The notes below the pieces were generated by a model. That model had not been told where the DNA came from. It ran no database searches and worked only from the letters and a program-made list of their open reading frames with translations. Positions 14,131-49,620 of a stretch of 52,250 nucleotides of DNA are shown in pieces; position 1 is the first letter of the stretch; each line of letters starts with the position of its first letter. A program made the position numbers and the translations under genes. This DNA comes from a virus. Its lineage: Duplodnaviria; Caudoviricetes. Where the stretch lies: positions 1 through 52,250 of IMG/VR virus record IMGVR_UViG_3300037961_002566. One strand, 5' to 3'.

Positions 14131-14543
14131 TGTTTAGTGCCGTACCAAAGCAAGTTATAGATATTGTGTGGGATGATGTAGTCAAAGTATTAAAGCCTGC
14201 TGTGGATACAGCAAAAGGTAAGCTAGGTATAAATGACATAAAAGATTATTTGTCTAAGGGTTTGTATGAATTATGGGTTGTTATGGACGGAACAAAGATT
14301 ATAGCAGCAATTACAACTAGGATTATAGAGTATCCAGAGCGTAGAGCATTGGCGATGGATTTTATAGGTGGTACTAGAATGAAAGAGTGGTTACCAGAAG
14401 CTCAAAGTACCATAGTACAATTTGCAAATGACAACAATTGCAGTCATCTAGAGGGCTACGGTAGAAAAGCGTGGAGTAGATGGTTAAAAAAGTATGGTTG
14501 GAAGCCAGATTACATAGCATACAGGATGGAAATAAATGGGTAA
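14127..14543 (+). CDS. GNAT-like protein
   Basis: FIGG..MKEW...FA..NNCSHLEGYGRKAW.R; GNAT-like genes commonly sit among podovirus ejection genes. Confidence 0.55.
   Translation: MMFSAVPKQVIDIVWDDVVKVLKPAVDTAKGKLGINDIKDYLSKGLYELWVVMDGTKIIAAITTRIIEYPERRALAMDFIGGTRMKEWLPEAQSTIVQFANDNNCSHLEGYGRKAWSRWLKKYGWKPDYIAYRMEING
14403..14422. promoter_or_regulatory. Palindromic motif copy (intragenic)
   Basis: CAAAGTACCATAGTACAATT; core intact, flanks degenerate. Confidence 0.6.
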
Positions 14544-22600: not shown

Positions 22601-25600
22601 ATAGAAAGAGAAGACAGTTTTTCTAATTATACTCCAGAACAACGTCAAGAGATGGTTGATGCAATAGTCAAGTTAAGGCAAACCAATGGGGCTACTCAGG
22701 CTTTAGTGCTAAACGCAATTCAGCGTGATCAATTTGGAAAAATAAAACTACAGTACATGGCACGAACTATAAGAAATAGTAAGCCTCCACCCGATGCAGA
22801 CAGACTAGCTAAACTAAAAGCAGCTAACATAGATGTTACGGCTATGTTATCAAGACCATTAGCTGAAATATTTCAAAAGAGGTTGCCAACAGGTGAAGCG
22901 ATCCCTGTAACCCAAGAACAATTAGAAAAAGAATACAAAGCAATAATGTCACAAACGGTGTCATTTCCTAGGTATGATGGAGAAACAAATCCAAGAGGAG
23001 AAGTTCTTTCTACAACATCAAGATCATACAAAAAGTACTATGATACTTTTATAAGTCATGACGAAAACGGAAAACCCAGAGAAGGAACAGACCTTGGCTT
23101 AATGTATTATGATAATATAAATGATAAACCCTCTGCATTCAACTCACACGACACGGTTAAACAGGAAGCCAGGCGTGACTATAGAGCGTTACATAAAAGC
23201 TATGCCATAAGACTAACAAAAAAACTAAAAGAACAGTTAGAGTTAGGTCAGGAGTTATTTTCTCTTGGATACACACCTGAAGGAGACAAGGTTACTGGGA
23301 TAGATAAGACTCTTATGGAGAGAGTTATATCAACTCTTACAGAGAACCAGTATCTCATATCCTCACTGCCAGAACTAGAGGATGACCCAAAGGGCGATCC
23401 GACACTTAACTTTAGAAATCTAATACCGTCCACAGGAAGAAGAGATGTGGCTGTGGTCATGAGAGATTATCTCTCACACAGACAGAACAGAGCAGGTGAC
23501 TTTAGAATAAACCTAGATGACGTAACGGATGCAGATAAAGAAAGCATCGCTACGATAATGGCAGCCGAAGCAGAGGTTGCATTAGCCAGAGATGGCAATG
23601 CTCTTGGTTGGTATGACGCTAAGTTTAGAGCGGCTAAAAGTCTAATCGGTCTTATACGCCCAGAGATACTCAATAATCCTGAACACGATGCAGTGTTTGA
23701 TTATGCTTTGGCAGTTACATCCAATGGTGTAGCAGTAATGCAGAACTTTGAATATGCGTTGAAGCAATATGATTATTGGGTTGAAAACGGCAAGTTTGAT
23801 GAAATAGGGTATGGAAAATCAAAAGGAGCTATGGAAGCTCACTTTGCATTGTATAACGCTCTTACAGATATGATGAAGTCTGGTGACTATAAGAGACCAA
23901 AGAGACTAGACAACTACCCACCAGAAGCCATAGGCGTGGACATTGAGCATTTCTTAGACAGAGATATAAAAATAAGAGACCTGATAAATGACCCTGTGTT
24001 GAGTGGTATTGCAGAGAAGAGTGGCGTAAGTCTTGAATCTTTAGGATCACAGGAAAAGAAAGATACTGTGGTCAAGATGTCTACCATCATAGGATCGAAG
24101 ATAGGTGGTGGGTTCTATCAGAACCTCAGAGGTAACTACGATACCCTAACTATGGATATGTGGTGGATGAGGTTCTTTAATAGAATTACAGGAAACCCAT
24201 TTAAAACACCTCAAGACAAAACTCAGTTAAAAAATTACAACCAATTTCTTGAAGAAATTACAGTAAACAGAGCAAATCTTACAGATATAGAGAAGAGACT
24301 TCTAAAAGAAGCTAGAGACAACATAGGTAATGTTCCTCTGCGTAGAGACATGGTGGCAAGAACAACGCAAAGAATGGATCAAAGAATAATTGATCTGGCA
24401 AAAGAATACTCAGTAATACGAAATCGTTATTATAATTCTGTATCTAATCAGGGAGTGGTGGATGGTATGACAGCAGAGGAAAGGGCTGTCATAAGAAGAA
24501 GAAATAGAGAGCAAAACAATCTTCTTGTTAAGCCAAGGTCTGTTTTGTTAGCCGATAGCATAAAGAGAAACTTTGTTGACATTGGTCAAGACACCCCAAG
24601 AAGTGCCACTGATCGTGAGTTGATGAGAGAAACCACACAGATGGCTATAAGAAAATTAGAGCAACGTGGCGTAGTGCCAAAAGGAGCATTGACTAATGCT
24701 GATTTCCAAGCTGTTATGTGGTTCCACGAAAAGGAACTCTTAGATAAGCTAGGAGCAAGAAAAGGGAACGGACAACAAAATGATTTTGTAGACAGTGCTA
24801 TAGAAGCACTAAGAAAGGAAGGTATAGACGATGACACGATTGCGAAAACACTCCCCAATGCAGAGCGAGGCAGGATCATTCGTGGAGCAGATTCCGAAAG
24901 AAGAGTTGCCGAACCTAGCGAAGGCTCTATTGCGGCTAGGCAACAACTCGCAGCTTTCAAAAGCGTTAAAGAAAAGAACGACATCACAAGAAAACAAGCA
25001 GAAGACATCAAGAAAGAGCTAGATCAAGATCGACAGAAGTACTACAGCTTGGGATACATCCCAGAAGAAAGAGAAAGAGACAGAGCAAACTTTGAAAGCA
25101 CACTGAGAGCTAACGTGCAGGACTTCCAACACAAATGGAACTACAGTGCATCATCAGACTTTGTAGCTAAAATACTAGGTGGCATCAAGATAGGTCAAAG
25201 CTTTCAGCTAGGATACAGTGATGAAAAAGCCAAAGCATTATCTGATCTGTTTATTAGAAAGTTCCAAGACAGAATGATACCTGTGTCTAGAATGGTGGAT
25301 GAGTTACAGGAAAAAGGCTTTAAACTAACAGATGCTCTCAATCCTATCATGCAAGCTAGACTATCACAGGGTAAAGCAAATGAAGAAATACGAGACAAGA
25401 GAGAGACAATCCACAAGGATGTGGTCGAAGCTGTAGCAAAGCTTAACTTTACAGATGCAGAGTTTGAGCAACTCAAGAGCGTATCGAATGCTGCCACTGA
25501 CCCTGACCAAGGAGGTGAGGGCTACATAGAGGTGGTCATGAAAGATTTCATGCCATCGTTCTGGAGAAGGATGTTGTTTGGCACACCAAGCAAGAAGTTG

Positions 25601-28153
25601 GTCATGGCAGAAACATATCTCTATGCTCTACACGCTAAAGAGAGAAACAACTATGTCAGAGAGATTGATGTAAACAACATCAATCAATTTAAGGACAGAG
25701 GTTCTGGTATGTCTGACAGAGAAGCAGATGCCATATTGAACTGGTTTAGAAACCAGGAGAGAGAACTAGAAAACTTAAACGACATACGCACAAAGATACA
25801 AAGAGTAATAGACGATACCAACGAAGTGAGAAGAAACTCTGGTTTACAGGCTATGTTCTTACGAGGGTCAAACTGGACGAACTATATACCTTTGAGAGGT
25901 GCTTTCGATCCAGAAGATGAGACCGTTGACTTTAACAATGCAGGTCAGCGTAAAGCCCCACTGTTTGGTAGTAAAGGTAGAGAAGACCCTGTAGTCAAAG
26001 GTAGAATAGATTATGCTCCAAATCTAATTGTAAACACATTAACACAGAACGCTAATTCCATCATGAGAGCGGCTCAGAATAACGTAGGTCGTGTGGTGTT
26101 GGACATGATCAGAGAAGACCCTGTGATGCTCCAAGAGTTTGCAACCATACAGGACACAGTTCCAGAAAGAATGTTTGTGGATGCACGAACAGGGGTTCTA
26201 AGCAAGAGACCTGCCACAAGGGATGATGTTGCTAAAGACAAGCACATATTGATTGTGAAAGAAAACGGCAACGAAGTTGTCATACGGTTTAATAGTGCTG
26301 TGGTTGCAGGGGCGTTCAGAGGTGATACTGGTGCAGGAGATGCAGCAAGCAACTCTTACTTGATGATGGCTAACAAGTTTAACAGATACTTGTCTAGTAT
26401 TAACACCACGTTTAACCCAGAATTTATTATTCCGAACTTTGTCCGTGACATACAAACAGCGGCGGTCAACATCGATCAGTACGAGGGTGAGAGACTAAAA
26501 AGAATAGTTGTCAAAAGATCATTTGCTATGGCTAGGGGTATATATAGTGCTGTGCAGAAGAACGATATGTCCTCACCAGAGGCACAGATGTACGATGCTT
26601 TTGTAAAAGCAGGAGGTAAGAACGTAACCAACCAGATGACGACACTTGGTGATCAGGTTGCTGATATACAAAACACCTTGAATGCCATATCTGAAGGCGG
26701 AGCTAGGGGTGGGTTAGCCAAAATGAAAGACAACTTTGTAGGTAAAAAAGTTACATCGTTAATAAACTGGATAGAGAATACCAACACTGCTATGGAGAAC
26801 GCAGTTCGTGTATCCACATTTGAAGCTTTGTTAAATACAGGTCGATACACAGAGCAACAGGCAGCCCTAGCCGCCAGAGAGATTACAGTAAACTTTGCTA
26901 GAGGTGGTGAGTATAAAACATTCCTAAACTCTTTGTATCTGTTCTTCAACGCATCATTACAGGGAACATTCGCCCTAGCAGAAGCCGCCACACGATCAAA
27001 GAATGTAAGACGTTTGTGGGTGGGCATAGTTGTAGCAGGTATATTGTCTGATCAAATCAATGCATTCTTTTCTGATGAAGATGAAGATGGCATTCTTATT
27101 TACGATAAAACAACAGACTTTACATTAGAGCATAATTTTCTCATACCTAATTTAGCAGGTAAGGCTATGGATGCTGTAAGAGATGAAGAAGATAATGTAC
27201 TCCAGAAGAACTCTTTCTCTATCCCACTGCCCTACGGAATAAACTTAGCGTTTAATGTGGGTCGGTCTCTCAGCAGAAGAATGAGAGGGGCATACACTCC
27301 TGCACAGGCTACAAGTTCTATAATGTCAACAACATTGGAAGCTCTTAATCCTTTAGGTGGTTCCGAAAGCATTGCTAACATGGCAGCTCCTACGATTGGT
27401 GACCCATTAGTTAGTCTTTGGCAAAACATAAATTACGATAAAACACCCATAACAAAACAAGTATCGCAGTTTGCGGTGGGTACGCCAGATAGTCAGACAT
27501 ACTGGAATAGTGCAAGTCCTATGTCTATAAGCATCGCTCAGTTTTTAAACAGAGCATTAGGTGGGAACGAAGTAAAGAGCGGAATGATAGATGTCAGTCC
27601 AGATACGTTGGACTTCCTGTTCAACTATTTTACAGGTGGTGCAGGTATGTTTGTCCAAAGGACAGCCACATTTGGATATGACTTGTCTACAGGGAATGTC
27701 TTTGAAGCATTTGAAGATGGTCTCACGGGAGAAGCGGTTAGGGAACAGATTAGGAAAACACCAATACTTAGAAAAGCTATTACGTCCGTATCAGAAAGAG
27801 AAGATACAGGTAAGTTTATACAGAAAAGAAACGTCATATTCGGTGCGAAGAAAGAACTAAAAGAAGCCATAGCTAGTAGAGATATGGACGAGATTAGAAG
27901 AGTTAGAAATAAGTTTCCTAAAGAGTTAAGGATATATGGAATAATCAGAGCCATAAACACCAAGAGACAGAAGCTTACATCACTCAGAAACAAACTGATC
28001 AGAGCAGAAAAGACAGCCAAGAACAAAGATGTATACGAAGCTAGGATAAAGAGATTAGATAAGCAGATACAGGCTTTGATAGGCAGAGGTAATTCTCTAA
28101 TGAAGAATATCGAACTCGATTTCTTTACAGAGTATGGCTTAACAGGGTATTGA
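16664..28153 (+). CDS. Large polyvalent protein (3829 aa) with zincin metallopeptidase, ParB-like, HhH-glycosylase-like and LPD38-like regions
   Basis: HEVLH + EEAVAD (from 19376); GEGRKRIQALKKLG (20207); GSKIGGGFYQNLRG..TMDMW..R...QAVMW (23.6-24.7 kb); ITVNFARGG...LFFNASLQG...IPLPYG at the C-terminus. Confidence 0.8.
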   Translation: MPLKLIRSPVTGEYYPVNIAGDTPTPEEKERIRQYLLMKEREVPAVQEEIQKNYAPKSGFGALGVGVDQAKHLGLSFLQGVNRMVGDDEDADEYQEMLNKLGRKIRQESAGLQKFKEIDSIGDAARFAGETILQTIPSTAVALTGAAAGVATLPFSGTVLGVGVSGALGGAAASLPLFMGGNREAQKESLRRQGKPVEVDEGAAFFTALPQALLESWGTIFITSIKKAGLKVNPQAFESGGLFTRLVDKATGTAPRRIGGAIGTGAVAESVTEVGQLLLERKQAGMSIDFNNPEVLDQVIEAAVAGGLVGGVFKGGVTGVSEFSERKKKADKQTELNNDLEEEYRQNVEMQKNAQQSFTNNPALLMAEEGSPITDGLTKAGDVLASETREPRPVRPDELTAKQLAVIRNERTKKGVSLDETQFPITLEEIRATLGPREARRLASKQGIPVKDINTATVNKFSYDQYKKVLESIRKNKDRDFSENKINAIIQKATGFKSGELTQAIRNELVGRGHLRATQDRAYRMETGMSIPVGEVEFQKAREFTEGRLAKESKQLDDRIIEAEKQLETGQVEGRKERGKKRFTMPTLAQQLQDKIELANKLETMKDNVTESVVPAINKLIKPYIANKTVKPFKTPLDVFKGINTILGSATSNNTRGVPYGLRKEIRDLQEEVARTERGIEADKQAHMFLQTSDFSADNVKFGMRGSTQANDPEMLFARQRQKEEQLRRKEQELETEQATARELKKNVRVLADQEAYEKQVDKIKGIQEEIQKLKRDAKELEDIRRKPTASVTQNQGQNQSNQMNATANLGAKNPFVNEYQQNLNEVGDRLRSYLKDDLKLNPDRVELITKNYIQKDGFVFGQEQRAGHNKRAITLAMQLFDRDTIADPTKQDMILDRIKGTLNHEVLHSLRALGLFTEQEFQTLVKAANTRKKVLWREGKVVERQYTYLDRVKRIYRRDRFPDMDEKAFNDMVQEEAVADLFQDAMDGKLKLGGVQKTLLQRIIDFFKAIYKANIDNEFDDISQIIEDVKSGKIGMRKPQELSSDDQVRFSLGEDVYNNARKEKIKIDELDVYSRVEGVNANKPDTEFLANYKTRVGPLGRDISKVGHNPVGYRPIYEDEYVKTILVPTDQAAKLLAPIDIGSETIDSIAEGIEKYDVKINPPQISVELSEDGKSLLVTSGEGRKRIQALKKLGYKNVAVDLMSRKGKAYKSELEAYAKPKILINRIGYDPTNPDKGSRGVVYSINDNNYATITQERDIDKLGFYSKALEVIEKMPQKKGTGEQFLKYLEGKVKKDELLWTGVQDYLENTDKVTKDELLALMSSNRIYVEETELLAFGKSEQKKDLIDLPRTNMERNNATEDVIADRMAFGQKNYRISKKNLRYPDELSSKIEQGSVRVYEGDVISIADLVNNRKLNNETLMLLGDADIGFIESEQEIDKLSKQAGLKYQIIEVRDEAGARDFVEREKIKLRDNKEELEEREESGGFIPEGVRYEIEDLENSVAGYEDFYGNLTGDAFDAYEDKVEGVVGNKFYVLRFEGNTEEEILEDRSKQKYDQTTLERHGIIKREGESYERQTPIIVELTEDIRVNSVKRGDFGTDEDVKAYQELREKQNNIILTENFKIRKKQEEIDAQNSEIRRFNQTLLPADNEASTAAGGTNYRVFEIELPAEAFPKLKYNPVHFKGERQLVFALAKDRIMPDGRKALTIQDFQSDWGQRGRKLGFTEPVLRQDVDYSVRQIRDIIKGLRALFQQRLDQLAEGINVTKASDQYLEKIVKKRQQQLDEFEKNIEENIKQVYKRGFPLKEGTKNIEMINKAGSELDRLTQISSYDSIFPELDDAMEPVNVSFRNLSTSKLDRFKGFGKYPNAPFITQTQHWSKLMIKRLLKRASDEGYDYLVFSGGDVLVNQLGQPEGNNSFYDDQLPGFVRDVLKPLDKEAFIGRYQDQLRKLINRGMAELTQQERESILNVYDGMKSDVSIEREDSFSNYTPEQRQEMVDAIVKLRQTNGATQALVLNAIQRDQFGKIKLQYMARTIRNSKPPPDADRLAKLKAANIDVTAMLSRPLAEIFQKRLPTGEAIPVTQEQLEKEYKAIMSQTVSFPRYDGETNPRGEVLSTTSRSYKKYYDTFISHDENGKPREGTDLGLMYYDNINDKPSAFNSHDTVKQEARRDYRALHKSYAIRLTKKLKEQLELGQELFSLGYTPEGDKVTGIDKTLMERVISTLTENQYLISSLPELEDDPKGDPTLNFRNLIPSTGRRDVAVVMRDYLSHRQNRAGDFRINLDDVTDADKESIATIMAAEAEVALARDGNALGWYDAKFRAAKSLIGLIRPEILNNPEHDAVFDYALAVTSNGVAVMQNFEYALKQYDYWVENGKFDEIGYGKSKGAMEAHFALYNALTDMMKSGDYKRPKRLDNYPPEAIGVDIEHFLDRDIKIRDLINDPVLSGIAEKSGVSLESLGSQEKKDTVVKMSTIIGSKIGGGFYQNLRGNYDTLTMDMWWMRFFNRITGNPFKTPQDKTQLKNYNQFLEEITVNRANLTDIEKRLLKEARDNIGNVPLRRDMVARTTQRMDQRIIDLAKEYSVIRNRYYNSVSNQGVVDGMTAEERAVIRRRNREQNNLLVKPRSVLLADSIKRNFVDIGQDTPRSATDRELMRETTQMAIRKLEQRGVVPKGALTNADFQAVMWFHEKELLDKLGARKGNGQQNDFVDSAIEALRKEGIDDDTIAKTLPNAERGRIIRGADSERRVAEPSEGSIAARQQLAAFKSVKEKNDITRKQAEDIKKELDQDRQKYYSLGYIPEERERDRANFESTLRANVQDFQHKWNYSASSDFVAKILGGIKIGQSFQLGYSDEKAKALSDLFIRKFQDRMIPVSRMVDELQEKGFKLTDALNPIMQARLSQGKANEEIRDKRETIHKDVVEAVAKLNFTDAEFEQLKSVSNAATDPDQGGEGYIEVVMKDFMPSFWRRMLFGTPSKKLVMAETYLYALHAKERNNYVREIDVNNINQFKDRGSGMSDREADAILNWFRNQERELENLNDIRTKIQRVIDDTNEVRRNSGLQAMFLRGSNWTNYIPLRGAFDPEDETVDFNNAGQRKAPLFGSKGREDPVVKGRIDYAPNLIVNTLTQNANSIMRAAQNNVGRVVLDMIREDPVMLQEFATIQDTVPERMFVDARTGVLSKRPATRDDVAKDKHILIVKENGNEVVIRFNSAVVAGAFRGDTGAGDAASNSYLMMANKFNRYLSSINTTFNPEFIIPNFVRDIQTAAVNIDQYEGERLKRIVVKRSFAMARGIYSAVQKNDMSSPEAQMYDAFVKAGGKNVTNQMTTLGDQVADIQNTLNAISEGGARGGLAKMKDNFVGKKVTSLINWIENTNTAMENAVRVSTFEALLNTGRYTEQQAALAAREITVNFARGGEYKTFLNSLYLFFNASLQGTFALAEAATRSKNVRRLWVGIVVAGILSDQINAFFSDEDEDGILIYDKTTDFTLEHNFLIPNLAGKAMDAVRDEEDNVLQKNSFSIPLPYGINLAFNVGRSLSRRMRGAYTPAQATSSIMSTTLEALNPLGGSESIANMAAPTIGDPLVSLWQNINYDKTPITKQVSQFAVGTPDSQTYWNSASPMSISIAQFLNRALGGNEVKSGMIDVSPDTLDFLFNYFTGGAGMFVQRTATFGYDLSTGNVFEAFEDGLTGEAVREQIRKTPILRKAITSVSEREDTGKFIQKRNVIFGAKKELKEAIASRDMDEIRRVRNKFPKELRIYGIIRAINTKRQKLTSLRNKLIRAEKTAKNKDVYEARIKRLDKQIQALIGRGNSLMKNIELDFFTEYGLTGY
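23031..23050. promoter_or_regulatory. Palindromic motif copy (intragenic)
   Basis: AAAAGTACTATGATACTTTT inside the giant gene. Confidence 0.7.
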
Positions 28154-30252: not shown

Positions 30253-30593
30253 GACAACAAGTCATCCAGAGTTGTTGTTTGTTGTGCAGGTTTACTTGGG
30301 ATAGGCTGTTCGCCATCTTTCCTATCTTTGTGAACACTCGCCCTAACCGTGATGTACTTCTGCTGTTTAGAGCCATCATCCCTTGGCTTGCTGAGATTAA
30401 CCCACCCTGCAATGCTGATCTTAGGCTTTGGGTCATCATTGCTGTGTATGTTATCTTTGTATAAAAGATACTGCTTGTGGATATTCTCACACAAATCTAA
30501 GGGAAGTTCCAAGTCACCAATCATATCTGGTTGACCGTCTTTCTGCTTAAACCTGTTTGAGTTTAAGATACCATTGAAATAGATTTTATTCAT
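30249..30593 (-). CDS. Putative ssDNA-binding protein (DUF736-like)
   Basis: G.L..N..K....QPDMIG...ISIAGW...KYITVRAS with an acidic tail; adjacent to ERF. Confidence 0.55.
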   Translation of the reverse strand: MNKIYFNGILNSNRFKQKDGQPDMIGDLELPLDLCENIHKQYLLYKDNIHSNDDPKPKISIAGWVNLSKPRDDGSKQQKYITVRASVHKDRKDGEQPIPSKPAQQTTTLDDLLS

Positions 30594-31321
30594 TAGCTTG
30601 CTCCTTGTAAGTTATCTAATTTGGTTTTGGTTTCTTGTTTAAATTTAGCCATCAAATCTGCATCGTCTTTGAATGTGTTTATGGCTTCTTGGTTTACCGA
30701 AATAAACTCCTTTAGATGGTTCACAGACCCTTGATCTTGCATGAAGTGTTTTAGTATTCTAAACACCGCTTGCGGATGGGTCTCACCCTCATTCTTCTTT
30801 ACTTGGTTATTCTTACCAGACAATTCTTTCACCACAGTTTTAATCTCTTCCTGTTTGCTGCCTGGCGGCGGATTAGTTCCATTTTGTACCATAGTACTTT
30901 TTGGTTCTACCGTGGTAGAATTACCATCGTCATCTGTTTCTGGATCGCATTCTAGGTTCAACATGGATTGAAGTAGATATCTCCTCATGTAGGTGATGCC
31001 ACTACCGATTGCTTGGCTACCCTTTTTCGTATCGTCAAGACAACTAACCTTGCTTTCTAGTTTCTCCCCAGAGGGCAGGTGGTACAAGGTACAAACCAAT
31101 AGGTTTTCTATTCTGTCATTCATATTCAGTACTTCCGTAGTAAAAGATATATGAACACCATTCTCTTCTAATGGCTTTTTACAAGCTTCAAAAACATCCA
31201 TAAGGGTAGAGTATTTACTACCGATATGAGGATTTCTCCCAGACTTTTTTAATTCTGAGAAGCCTTGCCCTCTTGCTTTCTCTATAGCTTCAAATATTTT
31301 TTCTTTAAGTGGCTCAACCAT
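30593..31321 (-). CDS. erf: ERF-family single-strand annealing protein
   Basis: NPH..SKYSTL.DV, QAIGSGITYMRRY.L, DDDGN. Confidence 0.85.
   Translation of the reverse strand: MVEPLKEKIFEAIEKARGQGFSELKKSGRNPHIGSKYSTLMDVFEACKKPLEENGVHISFTTEVLNMNDRIENLLVCTLYHLPSGEKLESKVSCLDDTKKGSQAIGSGITYMRRYLLQSMLNLECDPETDDDGNSTTVEPKSTMVQNGTNPPPGSKQEEIKTVVKELSGKNNQVKKNEGETHPQAVFRILKHFMQDQGSVNHLKEFISVNQEAINTFKDDADLMAKFKQETKTKLDNLQGAS
30882..30901. promoter_or_regulatory. Palindromic motif copy (intragenic)
   Basis: TTTTGTACCATAGTACTTTT in the erf linker region. Confidence 0.65.
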
Positions 31322-31499
31322 TTTCTTTTCCTTTCATGTATGATTCAAATATCGAGTCTATTACTGCTTTGTATTGGCTCTGTGTTGTGAACTGAGAAAT
31401 CATTAATTCACCTACCAATTTCTGAAGATGCTTCACATCTTTCTGACTTATATTCCACATTATCTTATCGCTATAAGGGAATGTTTTTTTCTCACTCAT
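31314..31499 (-). CDS. Hypothetical protein
   Basis: Start moved to ATG 31499 (MSEKK), GGAGAG RBS. Confidence 0.55.
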   Translation of the reverse strand: MSEKKTFPYSDKIMWNISQKDVKHLQKLVGELMISQFTTQSQYKAVIDSIFESYMKGKENG

Positions 31500-33219: not shown

Positions 33220-33630
33220 ATGTCAACTCAAAATAGAATAAAAGTTTTGTTTAATATAATTTTTACAATCGAGGGCGAACCTGCAAGCAAAGCGAATCAG
33301 CGAAAATTAGTGTTGATTAAAGGTCGAATGGTTCCAATAAAGTCTAAGAAAGCATTGGATTATGTGAAAGAATTTCAGAGACAAATTCCAAAGATTGACC
33401 CTCTCACAGAGGACTATGTCAAGGTGGAGATGATGATCTACTACGCATCCAGAAGACCAGACTTGGACGAATCACTAATCTTAGATTGTATGCAAAATTA
33501 TGTGTACTACAACGACAGGCAAGTAAAAGAGAAGCATATTTATTGGGGTCTAGATAAAGAAAGACCTCGTACAATAATTAGAGTGTCTGAGTATAGAAAG
33601 GAGGATACGCCAGACTACTTGACAAACTAA
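33220..33630 (+). CDS. rusA: RusA-like Holliday junction resolvase
   Basis: GEPASKAN, RRPDLDESLILD, NDRQVKEK. Confidence 0.75.
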   Translation: MSTQNRIKVLFNIIFTIEGEPASKANQRKLVLIKGRMVPIKSKKALDYVKEFQRQIPKIDPLTEDYVKVEMMIYYASRRPDLDESLILDCMQNYVYYNDRQVKEKHIYWGLDKERPRTIIRVSEYRKEDTPDYLTN

Positions 33631-33647
33631 CTAAATAAAAAAATAAT
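33619..33647 (+). promoter_or_regulatory. Putative sigma70 promoter for primase-helicase
   Basis: TTGACA-N17-AATAAT. Confidence 0.55.
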
Positions 33648-33670
33648 ACAAACTTCATAGTGGAGATATC

Positions 33671-35419
33671 ATGCTAAACTCAAACATGAGCAACATGGTA
33701 CTCAGTTTAGGTAAAGGGCAACATAAACTACAATGCCCATCGACAGAGTGCCAACAGCGAAAAAAGAAAAATCTTAAAACATTATCCGTTAAGGTGGATA
33801 TGGATGGGGCAGTTTACTATTGCCACCATTGTAACCTTAGTGGTCAAGAATTTTATAATAAACATAGGGAAACTAAAATGACTTCAATACCAAAGATAGA
33901 GAAAAAACCATTGAGTATCAATGGGTTACAGTGGCTTAACAAAAGAGGTATCAGCGAATCAACTGCCGATAAGTTGGGCATTACCACTTGCACACATTAC
34001 ATTCAAGGAGTTGGAAGCGAGACCGAATGTGTGATGTTTCCCTACACAAACAGAGGTCAGGTATACGCATCTAAAATTAGATCGATAACTGAAAAAGGGT
34101 TTGCTTGTTCTGGCTCACCACAAAGCTTTTTTAACTTGGATAGGGTGGACACTACCAAGCCACTAATAATATGTGAGGGCGAGTTGGATGCTCTGTCATT
34201 TATTGAATGTGGTGCAGAGGATGTTGCTTCCGTTGTCAGCGTACCGAATGGAGCGGTGATGAAAGTAGTTGATGAGGAGTTTGCAAAGAAAGACGATAGT
34301 AAGTTCCGTTTCCTGACCAACGCAGAAGAGATGCTAGAAGAGGTGGAGAAAGTAATCATAGCAACTGATTCGGATACAGCAGGACAGGCTATGGCAGAGG
34401 AAATGGCTAGAAGAATAGGTAAGCATAAATGTTTTAAGATAAACTATCCGAAGGATTGCAAGGATGCTAACGATGTTATTCTTAAAAAAAGTACCATAGC
34501 ACTTTTTGAATTGATCGATCTTGCCTCCGCCTATCCAGTATCAGGATTGTATGATGCATCTCAGTTTTACAAAAACTTAGATAGTTTATATTCAGACGGC
34601 TTTGGGAAGGGGGAAAGCACAGGGTTTGATAATGTGGATGAGTTATACACAGTTGTTAAGTCGCAACTCACTATAGTTACAGGTCATCCGTCAAGTGGCA
34701 AATCAGAGTTCATAGATCAGCTCATGGTAAACCTTGCCGTCAATAAGGGATGGAAGTTTGCTGTTGCAAGTTTTGAGAATCAACCAGAGATACATCTAGC
34801 TAAGATTATATCCAAGTATAAAAAGAAACCTTTCTTTGATGGACTGAACCCAAGACTTACAAAAGAGGAATTGGATGATGGTAAGGACTTTATAAAGAAG
34901 CACTTCTACTTTGTGCATCAGCGAGATGGTAGCTTGAGTTCAATTGATTCCCTGCTAGAAAGGATCAGGATTAGTGTATTACGTTATGGTACAAACGCTG
35001 TCGTCATAGACCCATACAACTATATTATGCGACCAACAGATGAACAGGAGACAGCATTTGTGTCTAGCCTGCTTAGTAAGATACGAGTGTTTGCCCAGAC
35101 TTATGATATCCACGTTTGGCTCGTTGCTCATCCGACCAAGATGATGCGAGATAGTTCTGGTAAAGTGCCACCACCTATGGCTTACGATATCTCTGGCTCT
35201 GCTCACTTCTTCTCTAAGACAGATTGTGGTCTAACTATACACAGACCAGACCCTGCAAACAGTAATATCACAGAGGTGCATTGTTGGAAGTGTCGCTACT
35301 CATGGGTGGGTAAGCAAGGACAAACCATACTAAGCTACGATGGATTAACATCTACATACAAACCTTTTGAGCCTTACAAGGGCATAGACGAGTTGTTTTC
35401 TGATGCTCCAGACTTTTAG
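33671..35419 (+). CDS. Primase-helicase (T7 gp4/Twinkle-like)
   Basis: Zn-binding CPSTEC/YCHHC; TOPRIM ICEGELDALS and ATDSDTAG; Walker A TGHPSSGKS; VIDPY; VAHPTK; ISGS. Confidence 0.9.
   Translation: MLNSNMSNMVLSLGKGQHKLQCPSTECQQRKKKNLKTLSVKVDMDGAVYYCHHCNLSGQEFYNKHRETKMTSIPKIEKKPLSINGLQWLNKRGISESTADKLGITTCTHYIQGVGSETECVMFPYTNRGQVYASKIRSITEKGFACSGSPQSFFNLDRVDTTKPLIICEGELDALSFIECGAEDVASVVSVPNGAVMKVVDEEFAKKDDSKFRFLTNAEEMLEEVEKVIIATDSDTAGQAMAEEMARRIGKHKCFKINYPKDCKDANDVILKKSTIALFELIDLASAYPVSGLYDASQFYKNLDSLYSDGFGKGESTGFDNVDELYTVVKSQLTIVTGHPSSGKSEFIDQLMVNLAVNKGWKFAVASFENQPEIHLAKIISKYKKKPFFDGLNPRLTKEELDDGKDFIKKHFYFVHQRDGSLSSIDSLLERIRISVLRYGTNAVVIDPYNYIMRPTDEQETAFVSSLLSKIRVFAQTYDIHVWLVAHPTKMMRDSSGKVPPPMAYDISGSAHFFSKTDCGLTIHRPDPANSNITEVHCWKCRYSWVGKQGQTILSYDGLTSTYKPFEPYKGIDELFSDAPDF
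34487..34506. promoter_or_regulatory. Palindromic motif copy (intragenic)
   Basis: AAAAGTACCATAGCACTTTT near the primase/helicase junction. Confidence 0.75.
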
Positions 35420-35490
35420 TTGGACATGGTGGACATGATGATAAGTGGCATATCCTGTGGCGGAAAAACCACAAACCACAAAATATAGCA

Positions 35491-35520
35491 TTGACAACAA
35501 ACCAAAATCGTCCGTATATT
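35491..35520 (+). promoter_or_regulatory. Putative sigma70 promoter
   Basis: TTGACA-N18-TATATT with no protein-sized ORF before the next terminator. Confidence 0.55.
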
Positions 35521-35526
35521 ATCGAA

Positions 35527-35597
35527 TGTGAATAGCACTACCTATGCGAAATCACTTCACTATGACAAACTTGGGTCTCTTCGGAGACCCTTTTTTT
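35527..35597 (+). ncRNA. Candidate ~70-nt sRNA
   Basis: Lies between the promoter and an intrinsic terminator; GTGAA/TTCAC stem; no coding potential seen. Confidence 0.45.
35573..35597 (+). terminator. Intrinsic terminator
   Basis: GGGTCTC-TTCG-GAGACCC followed by T7. Confidence 0.9.
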
Positions 35598-35650
35598 ACA
35601 TCAGCAAAAAATAAACCGCTGGCTTTCACTTCCTGGGAGTCCATGTTTCA

Positions 35651-35670
35651 AAAAGTATCATGGTACTTTT
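35651..35670. promoter_or_regulatory. Palindromic motif copy
   Basis: AAAAGTATCATGGTACTTTT between two convergent terminators. Confidence 0.75.
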
Positions 35671-35717
35671 TATGAGATGAGATTTAAATGCTGATTTAAA
35701 TCCTGTTTCGATTAAGC

Positions 35718-35750
35718 AAAAAAAAACCCCCAGACATTTCTGTCTAGGGG
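35718..35750 (-). terminator. Intrinsic terminator of the leftward operon
   Basis: Minus strand CCCCTAGACA-GAAA-TGTCTGGGGG followed by T9. Confidence 0.9.
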
Positions 35751-35850
35751 CTGAGTTGGGAGGAAAGACCTGTTAAAGAATGGGGCGGTGAAAGGAATAT
35801 AAAACCGCCCCAAGTACACAATAACCCACAGGTAAAGGTTATTGGTATTC
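35718..35850 (-). ncRNA. Candidate three-hairpin sRNA / 3' UTR RNA with anti-Shine-Dalgarno segments
   Basis: Hairpins at 35819-35844 and 35781-35812 plus the terminator; unpaired parts read UUUAUAUUCCUUUC and UUCCUCCC. Confidence 0.45.
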
Positions 35851-35858
35851 ATGTTAGA

Positions 35859-36053
35859 TTATTCTTCTAATAATCCAAGAATTTTTAATACTGCCTTTGC
35901 TAATTCCTTTCTGCCGTAATGAATAAAATCATCACCATTATTACAAAGAATAGTATCGTTTAATTCTGTGTTTTCCACTTCATGTTTACACAGGTCAATG
36001 ATCTCACCTAACTTAGATGTATCTTCGATGACCTCATCTTTTAATCTAGTCAT
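35859..36053 (-). CDS. Hypothetical protein
   Basis: AAAGGA RBS; last gene of the leftward operon. Confidence 0.65.
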   Translation of the reverse strand: MTRLKDEVIEDTSKLGEIIDLCKHEVENTELNDTILCNNGDDFIHYGRKELAKAVLKILGLLEE

Positions 36054-36055
36054 AT

Positions 36056-36253
36056 CTAATCCTTTCTATCTAAAATATAACCAACGATAATTCCAAATGT
36101 CGCTACTGACATAAGGGATGAATATGCGGATAATAATTCTTTGTCATTATCCGCAACAGCGGATGTACTCAGTAAGCAGAGTACACCCATAAAAATTGAT
36201 GAGCCTATGAATAAAATTCTCATGGTGCATACCATAAAACTACAAGTATCCAT
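36056..36253 (-). CDS. Small membrane protein (start uncertain)
   Basis: Two hydrophobic segments; sits within the operon. Confidence 0.45.
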   Translation of the reverse strand: MDTCSFMVCTMRILFIGSSIFMGVLCLLSTSAVADNDKELLSAYSSLMSVATFGIIVGYILDRKD

Positions 36254-36332
36254 AAACCCACGATGCCACCTAAAAGAAGTACAAGTGATACCGCATCAAC
36301 AATTGTCTTTAAGACTTCTAACCAATTGATCT

Positions 36333-37613
36333 TCATGACGTTATCTCCAACTCGTTAGCAATCCTAGTGACAAGCTTCTTGTCTAGGTCTCTGTTAGCCT
36401 TACCTATGTCCTCATGAACTGCGTGAAGAACATCACCGCTTGGCAAAGTCTTAGCCATGAGGAAAAGATTAGGTATCACATTGGGAGTAAACTCATAACC
36501 TATAGGCATTCCATCTTTGTTAGTATACCCATTGGCTTCAGTTCTTTTAGTGAAAGCAAAGTCAACAAAGTCACCCTTGTATAACTTCTTGCCCTCTTTC
36601 TTGACCCAATCCAATTCAACATAAGAGTCTTTCTTTTCATCGTATCTTTTGTAGACACTTAGGCTCATAGGAAATAAATACCTATTACCCATTTGTGATT
36701 TGACAAAAGGAAGGCAACGTCTTTCCCACATAGGTGATACCTGCAATCTCCATTCTTTTCCCCCATCTGACTTAGTTGTCATTTGGCAGGTACGCTTCAA
36801 GAATGCTCTAGTAGAGTACTTGACCTTATCCTCTGGGTTCCAATAATACTTTTCGTTATAATGAGAAAAAGACATAGGCAATTCACGTTGCAAGTCTGAA
36901 TCGTTTTTAGCATCCTCTAAAAGACCCTCAGACTTTCTCAACAAATGAACATACTTTGCACCACTCTCAGATTGTATGTAAGTGTCACACTGAACATCTA
37001 GATGTTCATATGCTTTAGGAAAGTTAGTTGCTAATCCTCTATCAGCAGAATACTTGGCATCATATAAAAGACTATCAATTTTAGAAAAGTGTGAGGTGTA
37101 TCGCTCATCGAATCTAAGGTCTTTCAAAGAGTCTAACTGATGAACAAAACCCATAAGGTTATCCCCAACATTGTTACTAGAATATCCTTGAGAAAAGTCC
37201 TTAAAGTTTTTAGAGAAAACAAAAGATTGTCTAAGGACTCCGCCCTCAGTGGCTTCTCTAATATTTACTGATTTAGTGCCATCTTTTCCGCCATTACGAT
37301 GATAGTAATAGGTTCTGTTCTTTTCATTTGAAACATCAGCAATAAAATCTTTTGGAATATCTAATGTTTCTCTCTGAAAATTTATGCATTGTGCAAGCTT
37401 GATCTTAGCCATGTATTTCTTAACGGCTGTTTCTCTTTCTCTATCTGCTTTATCAAGGGCGGTCTTCCAGTACCATCTGGGTCTTCTGCTGTAGATATAG
37501 TCTTTAGCTTCCTGCTTAGTGTCAAATATCATTCCATCTGGCATAACCGTATAGGTATATTCTGGCGGTTCGCCTACAGACGTAGCCTGCTTTATGATTG
37601 TATATTTTTCCAT
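36333..37613 (-). CDS. Hypothetical protein (426 aa)
   Basis: Start moved to ATG 37613 (MEKY), AAAAGGAA RBS; no recognisable motif. Confidence 0.75.
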   Translation of the reverse strand: MEKYTIIKQATSVGEPPEYTYTVMPDGMIFDTKQEAKDYIYSRRPRWYWKTALDKADRERETAVKKYMAKIKLAQCINFQRETLDIPKDFIADVSNEKNRTYYYHRNGGKDGTKSVNIREATEGGVLRQSFVFSKNFKDFSQGYSSNNVGDNLMGFVHQLDSLKDLRFDERYTSHFSKIDSLLYDAKYSADRGLATNFPKAYEHLDVQCDTYIQSESGAKYVHLLRKSEGLLEDAKNDSDLQRELPMSFSHYNEKYYWNPEDKVKYSTRAFLKRTCQMTTKSDGGKEWRLQVSPMWERRCLPFVKSQMGNRYLFPMSLSVYKRYDEKKDSYVELDWVKKEGKKLYKGDFVDFAFTKRTEANGYTNKDGMPIGYEFTPNVIPNLFLMAKTLPSGDVLHAVHEDIGKANRDLDKKLVTRIANELEITS

Positions 37614-37727: not shown

Positions 37728-38969
37728 TTAGTCATCGATGAATATTGTTGTGCCATAAGGTGGCAGGTAATAACTGCCAAGCTTTTCTTTAGATTGGCAA
37801 CATACCCAGATAATGTCACAAGGCTCATCGAACTGCGGTTCGTCACCGTAGTCACTAATCTCGCAATCAGTAAAGATCACAAGCTTCTTGAAATTAAAGT
37901 CCTGCCAATTCTCATCGATGTATTTGAAAGCAGGTCTAATTCTAGTACCGCCTGTACCATTGATCTTGAGAGACTCAATCTCCTCACCCTTGTCAAACCG
38001 CTTGATACCATCAACGTCAACTCTGGATGTAAAGGGTATAACAGTAATGGAGTCTGGCTTGATATCTTTAGATAAAGCATTCATCTCTGAGAAACCTCTA
38101 TCTCTTTGCTTCTTATCGACAGAAGCAGAGGTATCTTGAAGCACTCCAATATCACCGCATGACATACCCACGATTGTAGGTGTAATGGCATTCCAAGTAA
38201 GATGCTTTTTGTTAAGCTTCTTATATGTGTAGGTAGAGTCATTGTCACCGCCCTGCCATGCAAAGGTAAAGGCTTCCTGCCATTCAACCTTAGACTCTTC
38301 AACCCTGTTCAGAACGTCTTGAATCTCTTGGTTGATCGCACCTACCTGCTTTGCTTTGATACCTGCTTGAACGATCTTTCTGTCAATAGACTTGCTAAGT
38401 TTTTCTAACTGCTCTTGGTTCATCTCAGAGCCGTCTTCATTGGTAGGCTTCTCAATCTCACCGCCCCATGATTGTTGCGGTTTATCTTTGACAGCGTCCT
38501 TGTTCTGCTCAAGCACCGCATATATTTCTTCTGCGGTCATCTTCCTGCACTTGTCTCTGGTGAGACCAAAGTCTGGCATTTCAACAAGACCGCCTTTAGG
38601 TAGCTGTAACCGTAGGTCTGGTTTACGAAACGATGCCATGCCAAAGAAACGGTCTCTCTGATAGTCGTAGGTCTCTATCGTATTGTTGACCTTTAGGTCA
38701 CAGGCAAAGTTCCATAACTTAGGGTCTCTGTTTCCCATGCGGATATGGTGCTTGTCTACTATGTGCATAATCTCATGCACAAGTACGGTTGCATTTTCTA
38801 TAACAGTTAAGGTCTCAACAAACGGTAAAGAATAGAAAATGTTTTTGCCATCAGTACACATTGTCTCAATGTCATTGCGTTCTGTTGGGTTGCCTGCAAT
38901 CATCACTCCACCATAGAAGGTGAAGTGATTTGATACGATTGACTTGGCTAATGCTATTTTGTTTTCCAT
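37728..38969 (-). CDS. Metallopeptidase-like + vWA domain protein (DUF2201-type)
   Basis: TMCTDG, VLVHEIMH, WNFACDLKVN; MIDAS-like DTSASV, GTGGT, VIFTD. Confidence 0.85.
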   Translation of the reverse strand: MENKIALAKSIVSNHFTFYGGVMIAGNPTERNDIETMCTDGKNIFYSLPFVETLTVIENATVLVHEIMHIVDKHHIRMGNRDPKLWNFACDLKVNNTIETYDYQRDRFFGMASFRKPDLRLQLPKGGLVEMPDFGLTRDKCRKMTAEEIYAVLEQNKDAVKDKPQQSWGGEIEKPTNEDGSEMNQEQLEKLSKSIDRKIVQAGIKAKQVGAINQEIQDVLNRVEESKVEWQEAFTFAWQGGDNDSTYTYKKLNKKHLTWNAITPTIVGMSCGDIGVLQDTSASVDKKQRDRGFSEMNALSKDIKPDSITVIPFTSRVDVDGIKRFDKGEEIESLKINGTGGTRIRPAFKYIDENWQDFNFKKLVIFTDCEISDYGDEPQFDEPCDIIWVCCQSKEKLGSYYLPPYGTTIFIDD

Positions 38970-38977
38970 GTTAACTC

Positions 38978-40078
38978 CTAAACATAAATATCATTTAAAT
39001 GTCCATCAGCGACTAACTGCTTGAAAGTATCTGATGATCGAACACCGCTACAAACTGCCATGCAATCCTGCATACAAACCTGCAATAGGTCTCTGTTATC
39101 TAATCGCACACAATATTCCGCAATAGCAGGGAACGTGTCCAATGTGCAACGTGCAGACAAAGAGCCTAACAATACGAACAGGATATCCGCTCTATCGCAT
39201 ATCGGAGCATTAGCAGGGTCATCCAGAATAGCATCCAAGTTAGTTAACTCTGGAGCGGTCTGAACTACCTCTAGAAATGCCATGAAGCTGTTAGTCGTAG
39301 CTTCCCCTAGTGTTCCAGATAGCAAAGCCTGTAAGCAGGTTAGATCGCCCTCAAGACCCATATCCAATATGGTGTTTGCTCTTTGCCATGCTCTGGGTGT
39401 AGAGGTTGAGTCCTGCGTAGGGTCTGAATGACAAAAGACCGTAGGGTCTTCCTTACCTTTGAACCGCATAAAAGCAGGAATATAGGGAGACCATCCGCTC
39501 TTAGTCGCATAGTCACAAAAGTCATCTAGGTCTGGTTCAACATAGATGAAAGTCACCCTGTCCTTAATATGCGTAGGAATGCGGTTAGTACCTGCCTTAT
39601 CTTTTAGGCGGTTACCTGCACACATAAAGAACCAACCGTCTGGAAGCTTGTATTCACCAACCATTCCATCATTCATGATAGGAGCGATAGCGTTCTGAGT
39701 AGGAACAGGTGCTTGCGGAAATTCATCACCAAACACCCAACCTATTTCGATACCTGCGGTCTTCTTAGCGACTACCTCTAGATACCAATGTGCCTTTAGG
39801 TTCTTAGTCTGATCATTAGCTAAGTCTGGCATTTGAATACCGTTAACCTCTGTAGGGTCTTTCTGTGCTAGAGCAACCTCAACCATACCCATATCCATAT
39901 CGTTGTAAGGCTCTTGAACTGATTGCCTACCGCAATCGGTCTTACCGATACCCTGCATTCCCATGAGCATAGGAACAATAGGTTTTGCTCCTGTACCTGC
40001 TTTCTGGTTTTCGTAGTTAGAAATTAGGCAATGTCTTAATATCTTGCCTGCTTGTCTTATGTTAACTGTTTGTGTCAT
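38978..40078 (-). CDS. MoxR-like AAA+ ATPase
   Basis: Walker A GMQGIGKT, Walker B VFGDEF, CAGNR, STPRAW; adjacent to the vWA gene. Confidence 0.85.
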   Translation of the reverse strand: MTQTVNIRQAGKILRHCLISNYENQKAGTGAKPIVPMLMGMQGIGKTDCGRQSVQEPYNDMDMGMVEVALAQKDPTEVNGIQMPDLANDQTKNLKAHWYLEVVAKKTAGIEIGWVFGDEFPQAPVPTQNAIAPIMNDGMVGEYKLPDGWFFMCAGNRLKDKAGTNRIPTHIKDRVTFIYVEPDLDDFCDYATKSGWSPYIPAFMRFKGKEDPTVFCHSDPTQDSTSTPRAWQRANTILDMGLEGDLTCLQALLSGTLGEATTNSFMAFLEVVQTAPELTNLDAILDDPANAPICDRADILFVLLGSLSARCTLDTFPAIAEYCVRLDNRDLLQVCMQDCMAVCSGVRSSDTFKQLVADGHLNDIYV

Positions 40079-40140
40079 TTTTTATTCCTTTCATAATGAC
40101 TTCATAAACTCACCATTAAGTTTATGAGTAGGGAGTCTCG

Positions 40141-40160
40141 AAAAATACTATGGTACTTTT
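40141..40160. promoter_or_regulatory. Palindromic motif copy within a larger inverted repeat
   Basis: AAAAATACTATGGTACTTTT flanked by GGAGTCT / AGACTCC. Confidence 0.75.
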
Positions 40161-40182
40161 GAAGACTCCTAACTGATAAACT

Positions 40183-40887
40183 TTAGAACGATATCTTCTT
40201 TTGACCTGCAACATCGGATACAGGTGCTAGAGCATCAGCAATTGCGGTAACCTTATTGTTAAGCTTCTTAACTTCCGCTCCTGCTTTCTTAGCCTTAGAC
40301 ATTTTCTTTTTGGCTTGATCTTCAAAAGATTGTCTAGTCGCTATGGCTTCTTCTAGCCTGCTCTTTAGATCAAGAACAACATCCATATCTTTACCGCCCT
40401 TGTATTTAGTTCCGCACTTGGCAGGAACACCAACAACAGAGTCGATAACTTTCTGGACAAAGTCTCTGTTAGCTTCCTTGTTAGGGTTGCATATGTCCAT
40501 CAACTTAGCTTCAGAAGTGATCTTGTACCGCTCCATCACGTTTACGATATGGTCTACACTTGTATCGTTTTGACCTGCGAAAGCATCATTCTTGAGTACT
40601 AAGAACTGATGTAACCAACTAAGCTTTTCAGCTTTCTTCTTTTGTTGATTATCGTTTAAGCCTGCTTCCATGAGACCTTCTCTAATAGTCGCAAGATCGT
40701 CAGACTTTAGTTCTGTCTTCCTGCTTATGATCGCAGAGGTTGAAAGCATAGTCGCATAGGTCTGGCAATTTGAAAGATTGATCTTCTCAGAGTTCTTCTT
40801 GTTGTTGCCCTTTAGTCTATTGATTGAAAGATCAAGAGACTTGATAGAGGATATAGCATCCTGTGTAAGATTGATTTTAGTGTTCAT
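40183..40887 (-). CDS. Hypothetical basic protein, first gene of the leftward operon
   Basis: 234 aa; GAAAGGAA RBS; Lys-rich helical C-terminus. Confidence 0.75.
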   Translation of the reverse strand: MNTKINLTQDAISSIKSLDLSINRLKGNNKKNSEKINLSNCQTYATMLSTSAIISRKTELKSDDLATIREGLMEAGLNDNQQKKKAEKLSWLHQFLVLKNDAFAGQNDTSVDHIVNVMERYKITSEAKLMDICNPNKEANRDFVQKVIDSVVGVPAKCGTKYKGGKDMDVVLDLKSRLEEAIATRQSFEDQAKKKMSKAKKAGAEVKKLNNKVTAIADALAPVSDVAGQKKISF

Positions 40888-40922
40888 GATTAAGTTCCTT
40901 TCATAAATGTTAACACTATAAA

Positions 40923-49248: not shown

Positions 49249-49620
49249 ATGTATCAAGCTGTAAAGAAGGAAGGAGACCCAAAGGTCGCTTCCAAAATGC
49301 CCGAACCAAAGGGCTACAAACTCCTAATATCCCCAGTAGAAGTAGACGAGAAAACAGAAGGCGGTCTGTATATGCCTGACCAGATAAGAGATGCTGAAGG
49401 TATAGCGTCCATTATAGGGTTTGTGGTTAGTATGGGTGCTGATGCCTATAAGGATAAAGACAAGTTTCCAAATGGTGCGTACTGCAAAGTAGGTGACTTT
49501 GTGATATTTCGATCCTACTCAGGAACTCGTTTTAAAATACACACACAGGAATTTAGATTAATTAACGATGACACGGTTGAAGCCGTTGTCGATGACCCAA
49601 GAGGATATAAGAGAATATGA
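49249..49620 (+). CDS. groES: Co-chaperonin GroES-like
   Basis: P.GYKLLI....EKTEGGLYMPD...G.VVSMG...CKVGDFVIF..YSGT......EFRLINDD.V.AVV. Confidence 0.85.
   Translation: MYQAVKKEGDPKVASKMPEPKGYKLLISPVEVDEKTEGGLYMPDQIRDAEGIASIIGFVVSMGADAYKDKDKFPNGAYCKVGDFVIFRSYSGTRFKIHTQEFRLINDDTVEAVVDDPRGYKRI

Follow-up and report, generated by a model that had tools for sequence, protein, structure and literature searches.

Classic same-strand antisense RNAs of phages are, to our knowledge, few. The mechanism of C4 was reportedly set out by Citron and Schuster in 1990, and C4 is said to lie upstream of its targets and to be cut out of the leader. In Staphylococcus aureus, a bacterial example, the 3' UTR of the monocistronic icaR mRNA pairs with the Shine-Dalgarno (SD) region of the same mRNA. 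C4 is named as the antisense RNA of the immI operon of P1 and P7 in PMC8201110. OppZ and CarZ of Vibrio cholerae are autoregulatory sRNAs derived from the 3' UTRs of two operons, according to the review PMC9438474, which describes Hoyos et al. 2020. Among the papers listed by a literature search, titles and the beginnings of abstracts named no phage-encoded operon-end RNA directed against ribosome-binding sites (RBSs), which is not proof of absence.

The element compared here with these systems lies in a 52,250-bp linear IMG/VR record of an uncultured marine phage (completeness estimate 88%), and this whole stretch is called the window below. The autoregulation by 3' UTRs outlined for OppZ and CarZ appears to be the nearest known logic. 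As with those two sRNAs, the element stands at the 3' end of a polycistronic operon, here between the stop of the last gene (35859) and the terminator, which is shared, and it has no coding capacity. Its putative seed, the loop of a hairpin named HP2, is complementary to the RBS of an internal gene (14 of 15 nt at a PHROG 'ATPase' gene, with a 9-mer in common with the gene that starts at 40887), and feedback would be possible only after the whole operon has been transcribed. Differences from OppZ and CarZ, as that review describes them, are that the window element is phage-borne, that the putative seed sits in a hairpin loop, and that the RBS cassette recurs at several genes, one of them in another operon, so that several targets are possible.

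The earlier note had likened the element to P1 C4. Both would be phage RNAs on the same strand and transcript as their targets, with loops complementary to the RBS region of genes of their own operon. C4 lies upstream of its targets, however, whereas the window element is 3' of all operon genes; the two are alike neither in sequence nor in structure, the window shows no evident immunity context, and the element does not belong to the C4 family. An Rfam scan of the window at gathering scores gave 0 matches; at E up to 5, 14 matches were obtained in 35380-35900, none of them to C4. It is the terminator on which the weak Rfam matches, to His_leader, Spot_42, suhB and others, are based. For MmgR/suhB (RF00519), the full model length is matched and a single-stranded UUUCCUCCC stands directly 5' of a Rho-independent terminator, but this is a resemblance only: at 24.4 bits the match falls well short of the gathering value of 41, the window tract is within an mRNA 3' UTR and not an independent gene, and the sister lineage G001 (a contig of locus L004) gives no match at the same place and 18.5 bits at a non-equivalent one. 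With icaR the element shares a C/U-rich anti-SD motif in the 3' UTR, by which the mRNA could pair in cis with one of its own RBSs; unlike the monocistronic, bacterial icaR, the window operon is ~5 kb long with several candidate sites.

A folded, non-coding 3' UTR at an operon end

The window is arranged as follows.

1 to 28153, plus strand: rightward genes, including a 3,829-codon frame
33136 to 28186, minus strand: leftward genes (Erf-like, exonuclease, methyltransferase)
33220 to 35419, plus strand: rightward genes (RusA, primase/helicase)
35420-35858: convergent intergenic region of 439 bp that holds the studied element
40887 to 35859, minus strand: second leftward operon (234-aa protein of unknown function, PHROG 'ATPase', DUF2201/VWA, 460-aa protein, two small proteins)
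35859..36053, minus strand: last gene of this operon, 64 aa, no family; its RBS has GAAAGGA (36060-36066)
41494 on, plus strand: rightward genes (terminase, portal, GroES)

By primase, the nearest isolates are only 33% identical, the best match being to cyanophage records, and blastn of 35400-36100 against 50,697 phage records gave no match and no near relative. Gene 38978-40078 matches phrog_1297 'ATPase' and no Pfam family; the Erf-like gene (30593-31321, phrog_155) belongs to the separate leftward operon, and GroES (Cpn10) is encoded at 49249-49620. The 3,829-codon frame is a single open frame in the structural block (16664-28153, plus strand), and its counterpart in G001 has 3,043 codons. 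A palindromic motif, AAAAGTACCATAGTACTTTT, recurs in the window, where GTACCATAGTA is found five times, and is also present in G001. Its sites are at 14407, 30886, 32235, 37672 and 40146, with similar ones at 23036, 41342 and 49186; some lie just upstream of gene SDs and others within genes. This palindrome may act as a phage promoter or regulator site, or it may form a weak bidirectional hairpin.

The 3' UTR of the second leftward operon is composed of the following parts.

35716-35858, minus strand: 3' UTR with two hairpins (HP1, HP2), a single-stranded CUUUCCUCCC tract and an intrinsic terminator
35819..35844, minus strand: HP1, 8-bp stem (35819-35826/35837-35844) and 10-nt loop UUUACCUGUG
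35781..35812, minus strand: HP2, GC-rich 9-bp stem (35781-35789/35804-35812, 100% complementary) and 14-nt loop UUUAUAUUCCUUUC (35803-35790)
35753..35780, minus strand: single-stranded spacer with the anti-SD-like, CCUCCC-containing CUUUCCUCCC tract at 35767-35758
35716..35752, minus strand: intrinsic terminator, 12-pair stem (35752-35725), 4-nt loop and a run of 9 U

This confirms the coordinates that had been proposed for HP2, with its 9-bp GC-rich stem and 14-nt loop, and the order in which the CUUUCCUCCC tract and the terminator stand 3' of it on the leftward transcript. The terminator has the GC-rich stem-loop followed by a U run on the transcribed strand that characterizes a Rho-independent terminator, and its stem is retained in G001 and in a further sister locus, L287, with one pair changed on both sides. 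Folding of a 161-nt stretch was compared with that of shuffled sequences and gave z = -4.73, with 0 of 200 shuffles as good; for the G001 UTR z = -6.30. A 46-codon minus-strand frame (35712-35852) runs through the element, is without an SD-like RBS, and is frameshifted in five of nine close relatives (L007 and L083 by +1; L003, L082 and L091 by +2). Because these indels break the sole minus-strand frame through the element and no SD precedes that frame, the sequence is to be read as RNA and not as protein: 35716-35858 is a 3' UTR that does not code for protein, folds strongly and has a terminator at its end.

Assembled contigs of three RNA runs and one probable DNA run were also placed on 34800-36800. 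RNA contigs cover 35463-35612 (one, of 151 nt), 35980-36182 and 36011-36124; none lies over 35718-35850, and such contigs show presence only. A sponge for the CsrA protein, of the CsrB/RsmZ kind, was considered and rejected, because the GGA strings are on the plus strand only, whereas the operon and its terminator place the minus strand in the transcript.

Complementarity of the hairpin loops to ribosome-binding sites

Three leftward genes share the RBS cassette UGAAAGGAA, to which the HP2 loop is exactly antisense; these genes are the candidate targets.

40079..40093, minus strand: UGAAAGGAAUAAAAA, RBS region of the ATPase gene 38978-40078, antisense to the HP2 loop in 14 of 15 nt
40895..40903, minus strand: UGAAAGGAA in the RBS of the 234-aa gene 40183-40887
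31328..31336, minus strand: UGAAAGGAA in the RBS of the erf-like gene 30593-31321, in another leftward operon

Both similarities that the earlier note had described are borne out. Read on the plus strand, TGAAAGGAATATAAA (35789-35803) differs from 40079-40093 (minus strand), directly 5' of the ATG at 40078, by a single mismatch, and this is its sole other match at one mismatch or fewer in the window. The string common to the loop and to the RBSs of the 40887 gene and erf is TGAAAGGAA, of which four copies are found in 104.5 kb (both strands). Three, at 31328-31336, 40085-40093 and 40895-40903 on the minus strand, each lie just 5' of a minus-strand start codon, and the fourth, at 35789 on the plus strand, is in the HP2 loop. 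Shuffled sequences hold 0.86 copies on average, and 2 of 100 reach four.

Several statistics were used to ask whether this complementarity exceeds chance, and they give mixed answers. When the loop 15-mer was compared with 64 start regions, its best match, the ATPase site, was equalled by shuffled 15-mers with P = 0.0013, and the three best-matching regions all belong to minus-strand genes. With the 8-nt core GAAAGGAA fixed and the flanks alone shuffled, P for the ATPase match is 0.14. A 9-mer shared with at least three start regions is found in 13 of 10,422 windows of 140 nt (0.0012). At eighteen separate non-start places in the window, of which the HP2 site is one, a 15-mer comes within one mismatch of a start region, and therefore ~0.02 would be expected in a 135-nt UTR read on one strand. 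The statistical weight is moderate. A 12-nt match of an HP2 arm to 38458-38469 was set aside as chance, since ~0.8 such matches are expected per UTR.

Duplex energies of the HP2 loop are -11.5 kcal/mol for the ATPase site, -9.9 for the 40887 gene, -9.5 for the last gene and -9.1 for erf, and these four best partners are all leftward genes. After correction for accessibility, the ATPase site gives -9.7 kcal/mol and the other three targets -4.3 to -7.1; the duplex has a high AU content and, at three of the four sites, is weak. Against 300 shuffled loops and the same 64 start regions, the HP2 loop is no better than chance, either in minimum (P = 0.38) or in mean hybrid energy (P = 0.22), and neither the HP1 loop nor the CU tract has duplex energies better than 300 shuffles each. 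The proposal of an antisense RNA against several RBSs is partly supported: a loop antisense to the cassette of three genes exists, but the hybrid energies lend no support.

A second pairing had been suggested, between the HP1 loop and AGGUAAA in the RBSs of groES and the 42537 gene. The hairpin exists and AGGTAAA does precede the ATG of both genes, but AGGTAAA occurs 13 times in the window and the pairing is at chance level. The accompanying statement that no start codon stands at RBS distance from such strings on the plus strand is not strictly true, because a TTG at 35842 lies 5 nt 3' of the plus-strand AGGTAAA. This TTG opens a 25-codon frame (35842-35918, plus strand) that overlaps the end of the last leftward gene in antisense and has no promoter-like site upstream, none being present on the plus strand between 35521 and 36046.

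Spacers of ~100 nt 5' of cassette-bearing genes (40079-40182 in the window, and the G001 leaders) hold hairpins and ACUCCC(C)U strings, and GGAGUCU...AGACUCC precedes the ATPase gene. These leader hairpins could sequester SDs in cis.

Cassette and antisense change together between lineages

The window has nine near-identical loci among its close relatives, and HP2 is invariant in all ten sequences. The ATPase site is altered at position -3 in five of seven relatives, and in L082 also at the first base, which leaves a match of 13/15 or 12/15 to the loop with no compensating loop change. Joint selection on the complementarity that extends beyond GAAAGGAAUA is thus not visible.

Sister lineages are more distant. 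The ATPase as a single query retrieved close relatives only, and a two-sequence profile added L285-L287. The primase of G001 is 64% and its ATPase 34% identical to that of the window, and the layout is the same: last gene, HP1, HP2, CU tract and terminator. Here the cassette is GGAGUGAA, found at five gene starts, and the UTR bears its antisense instead. The string GGAGTGAA occurs seven times in G001 (103.5 kb); five copies, mostly as GGAGUGAAAAAAUG, are at gene starts of the minus-strand operon, the ATPase gene included, and of the other two, one is an antisense copy within the apical HP1 loop. The window has no GGAGTGAA at all, nor does any G001 gene start have GAAAGGAA; own-cassette matches number 3 and 5 against 0 and 0 for the crossed comparisons (window and G001, respectively). 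With 8-mers, 109 of 10,422 windows in the window and 101 of 10,326 in G001 do as well, or ~0.01 each; this word length was picked after looking, and 9-mers give 0.0012 for the window and 0.48 for G001. In L287/L297, whose UTR is ~73% identical to that of G001, the cassette at 4-5 starts and the AGGGUUCACUCCC antisense in HP1 are retained; G001 and L287 are of shared ancestry. Joint variation of antisense and target, the kind of test that the earlier note had named, is seen across lineages, where cassette and antisense are swapped together, and is not seen at the ATPase site in close relatives. The antisense is in HP2 in the window and in HP1 in G001/L287, and therefore the two positions are not homologous.

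The arms of HP1, paired by reading the sequences directly, are given below.

Window: 5' arm CAAUAACC, 3' arm GGUUAUUG
L084/85: 5' arm CCAAUAGCC, 3' arm GGUUAUUGG, including a G-U pair
G001: 5' arm CCGAUAGGC, 3' arm GCCUAUCGG
L287: 5' arm CCAAUGGGC, 3' arm GCCCAUUGG

The HP1 helix is homologous across the window, G001 and L287 lineages, and four of nine pairs are changed compensatorily; HP1 is therefore a selected RNA helix. Its antisense-bearing apical loop is conserved between G001 and L287 while the stem covaries. The UTR hairpins are absent in the 55% (L088-90) and 45% primase relatives, and more distant relatives have a single bidirectional terminator instead; in the automatic screen of 91 loci, several intergenic bounds were mis-set by spurious small ORFs. 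Many of the 45% primase relatives reuse one RBS string, for example GAGGCTTA at nine gene starts in L053.

Competing explanations and the convergent primase unit

The main alternative is that the operon end is passive. HP2 and the final hairpin would be tandem intrinsic terminators and HP1 a stabilizing or processing hairpin, and the antisense resemblance would have no regulatory role and would have arisen by chance, which purine-rich RBS strings of low complexity make easier. This is a possibility to be taken seriously. The HP2 of G001/L287/L297 is an ordinary terminator hairpin followed by 8 U, and its loop varies freely, by flipping (AAAAA/UUUUU; it is inverted between L004 and L005 in the G001 lineage) or by expansion. 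HP2 may simply be a first terminator, because its sister-lineage form is a canonical terminator with a variable loop; in the window it could be a weak one, because AUUCUUU comes directly 3' of it on the minus-strand RNA. The ordinary hybrid energies, the 18 near-matches at non-start places, the lack of compensation in close relatives and the single bidirectional terminator with which distant relatives manage are all consistent with this reading. A 14-nt loop is, however, unusual for a terminator, and the terminator scan, defined for loops of 3-8 nt only, did not call HP2. Passivity also leaves aside that each of two lineages whose cassettes differ has the antisense of its own cassette, at the frequency of ~0.01 each and with the own-versus-cross counts given above, and that the antisense-bearing loop of HP1 is kept in G001 and L287 over a covarying stem.

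It is improbable, though conceivable, that the functional seed is the single-stranded CUUUCCUCCC tract and not the HP2 loop, which would make the element a general anti-SD RNA, like MmgR or the RsaE-type C-rich sRNAs, that damps strong-SD genes on either strand. The tract and the 5' arm of the terminator are the best conserved part between the window and L287/L297, in which the spacer sequence CUUUCCUCCCAA(A)CUCAGCCC is identical, and the full-length, sub-threshold suhB/mmgR match (E = 0.0026-0.0076) covers UUUCCUCCC and the terminator. Co-folding pairs the tract best with the strongest SDs (-16.2 and -14.9 kcal/mol), by a dimer method that cannot place a partner inside a hairpin loop and scored the CU tract only. 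Shuffled tracts nevertheless reach equal energies (P = 0.70-0.76), none of the tract's 9-mers is found again at a start region, the G001 tract differs (AACUCCCCCAUAU), and the suhB match in G001 is elsewhere and weaker. When genome contigs were scanned for the CU tract, one match was obtained, in a Sphingomonas MAG; it is without terminator context and was judged chance.

The inverted RBS-like strings, and the whole intergenic region, might instead be protein-binding sites in DNA (an origin, operator or partition site beside the primase gene), and not RNA signals. An inverted repeat, GATTTAAAT-GCTG-ATTTAAATC (35681-35704), does stand in the non-transcribed stretch that separates the two convergent terminators; it is also conserved in G001, is present in unrelated viral contigs, and may itself be an operator, origin or partition site. 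Among the relatives with 45% primase identity (L008-L160), GTTTAAAC / CGTTTAAACG palindromes occur on both sides of the primase gene, ~20 nt upstream of its start and 1-3 times downstream. Covariation of two inverted copies alone cannot separate RNA pairing from a shared protein site. We nevertheless consider a DNA-level account very improbable for the UTR element: the cassettes are exactly at SD distance from start codons, their antisense copies are in hairpin loops of a transcribed UTR, and the covariation of HP1 keeps pairing, with the G-U of L084/L085 as an RNA-level signature. The gap repeat appears as GGATTTAAATGCTGATTTAAATCC in the otherwise unrelated viral contigs L219, L183, L167 and L191, beside promoter-like sites and terminators. 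The pattern TTTAAATGCTGATTTAA proved too unspecific, with at least 118 stretches matched, of which 80 were screened.

That the region encodes a 46-aa small hydrophobic protein (35712-35852, minus strand) is refuted as far as sequence allows, since an ATG-initiated open frame exists but is not kept in the close relatives, lacks an SD-like RBS, crosses the terminator stem and U run, has no PHROG match and is absent in G001.

The explanation that we tentatively prefer, and that may quite well be correct, is that 35716-35858 on the minus strand is an OppZ-like autoregulatory 3' UTR whose RNA feeds back on RBSs. The HP2 loop would base-pair with the UGAAAGGAA cassette of the ATPase gene, and more weakly with the 40887, erf and last-gene sites. 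Pairing could take place within the full-length mRNA or after a 3' piece has been cut off. Ribosome access would be blocked when transcription of the operon is complete, which would amount to OppZ/CarZ-like negative feedback. Accumulation of the RNA, pairing in vivo and repression are the steps that we infer; the fold, the lack of coding, the complementarity, the lineage-matched swap of cassette and antisense and the covariation of HP1 are seen in the sequences.

A second 3' unit, on the plus strand, converges on this UTR from the primase side.

35491-35520, plus strand: promoter-like site after the primase gene, TTGACA-18-TATATT, 11 of 12
35527..35597, plus strand: 3' unit after the primase/helicase gene, with seed CACUAUGA at 35558-35565 and a UUCG-loop terminator at 35573-35597
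33655..33662, plus strand: seed partner UCAUAGUG, immediately 5' of GGAG at the primase/helicase start (ATG 33671)

The 8-nt seed before the terminator has a perfect complement in the primase start region of 15 of 15 sequences and of L287, which makes 16 of 16 from four lineages, with two compensatory double changes.

Window group: seed CACUAUGA, primase start region UCAUAGUG
G001 and L287: seed CACUCUGA, primase start region UCAGAGUG
L088 group: seed UACUCUGA(UC), primase start region (GA)UCAGAGUA

The target 8/9-mer has only two copies each in G001 and L089, and four in the window. In a set of 126 unique loci, the more distant relatives have 5-9-nt chance matches only, or the CGTTTAAACG palindrome flanking the gene. 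The plus-strand unit of G001 also has a complement of the cassette, UUUUUUCACUCU, and the four best partners of this RNA all bear the cassette. In the window, the 151-nt contig from an RNA run (35463-35612) spans the unit. Directly 3' of the primase stop, tandem TGGACATGG / TGGACATGA stand at 35421-35438, and similar TTGGACAC repeats are in the same place in G001 and L287.

The plus-strand unit is a candidate autoregulatory RNA of the primase gene, and its seed and start site form a pair that is better supported than the minus-strand UTR element. Two copies of a protein site in DNA may also explain this pair, because the CGTTTAAACG palindrome flanks the gene in relatives. The primase pair makes it more probable from the outset that operon-end anti-RBS RNAs are in use in this phage group.

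A wider view, which we hold to be rather unlikely on present evidence, is that the intergenic region that separates the ATPase/VWA operon from the replication genes is a hub of post-transcriptional control. Two convergent 3'-end RNAs would each carry an anti-RBS seed against their own operon, the plus-strand one against the primase start and the minus-strand one against the lineage-specific cassette, which would serve as a co-evolving address label that wires a small regulon. If true, uncultured marine phages would use logic of the OppZ/CarZ type through RBS cassettes that change together with the RNA. For metagenomic phages without a cultured host, it would further provide a search rule, namely the antisense of a recurrent RBS string in an operon-end hairpin loop.
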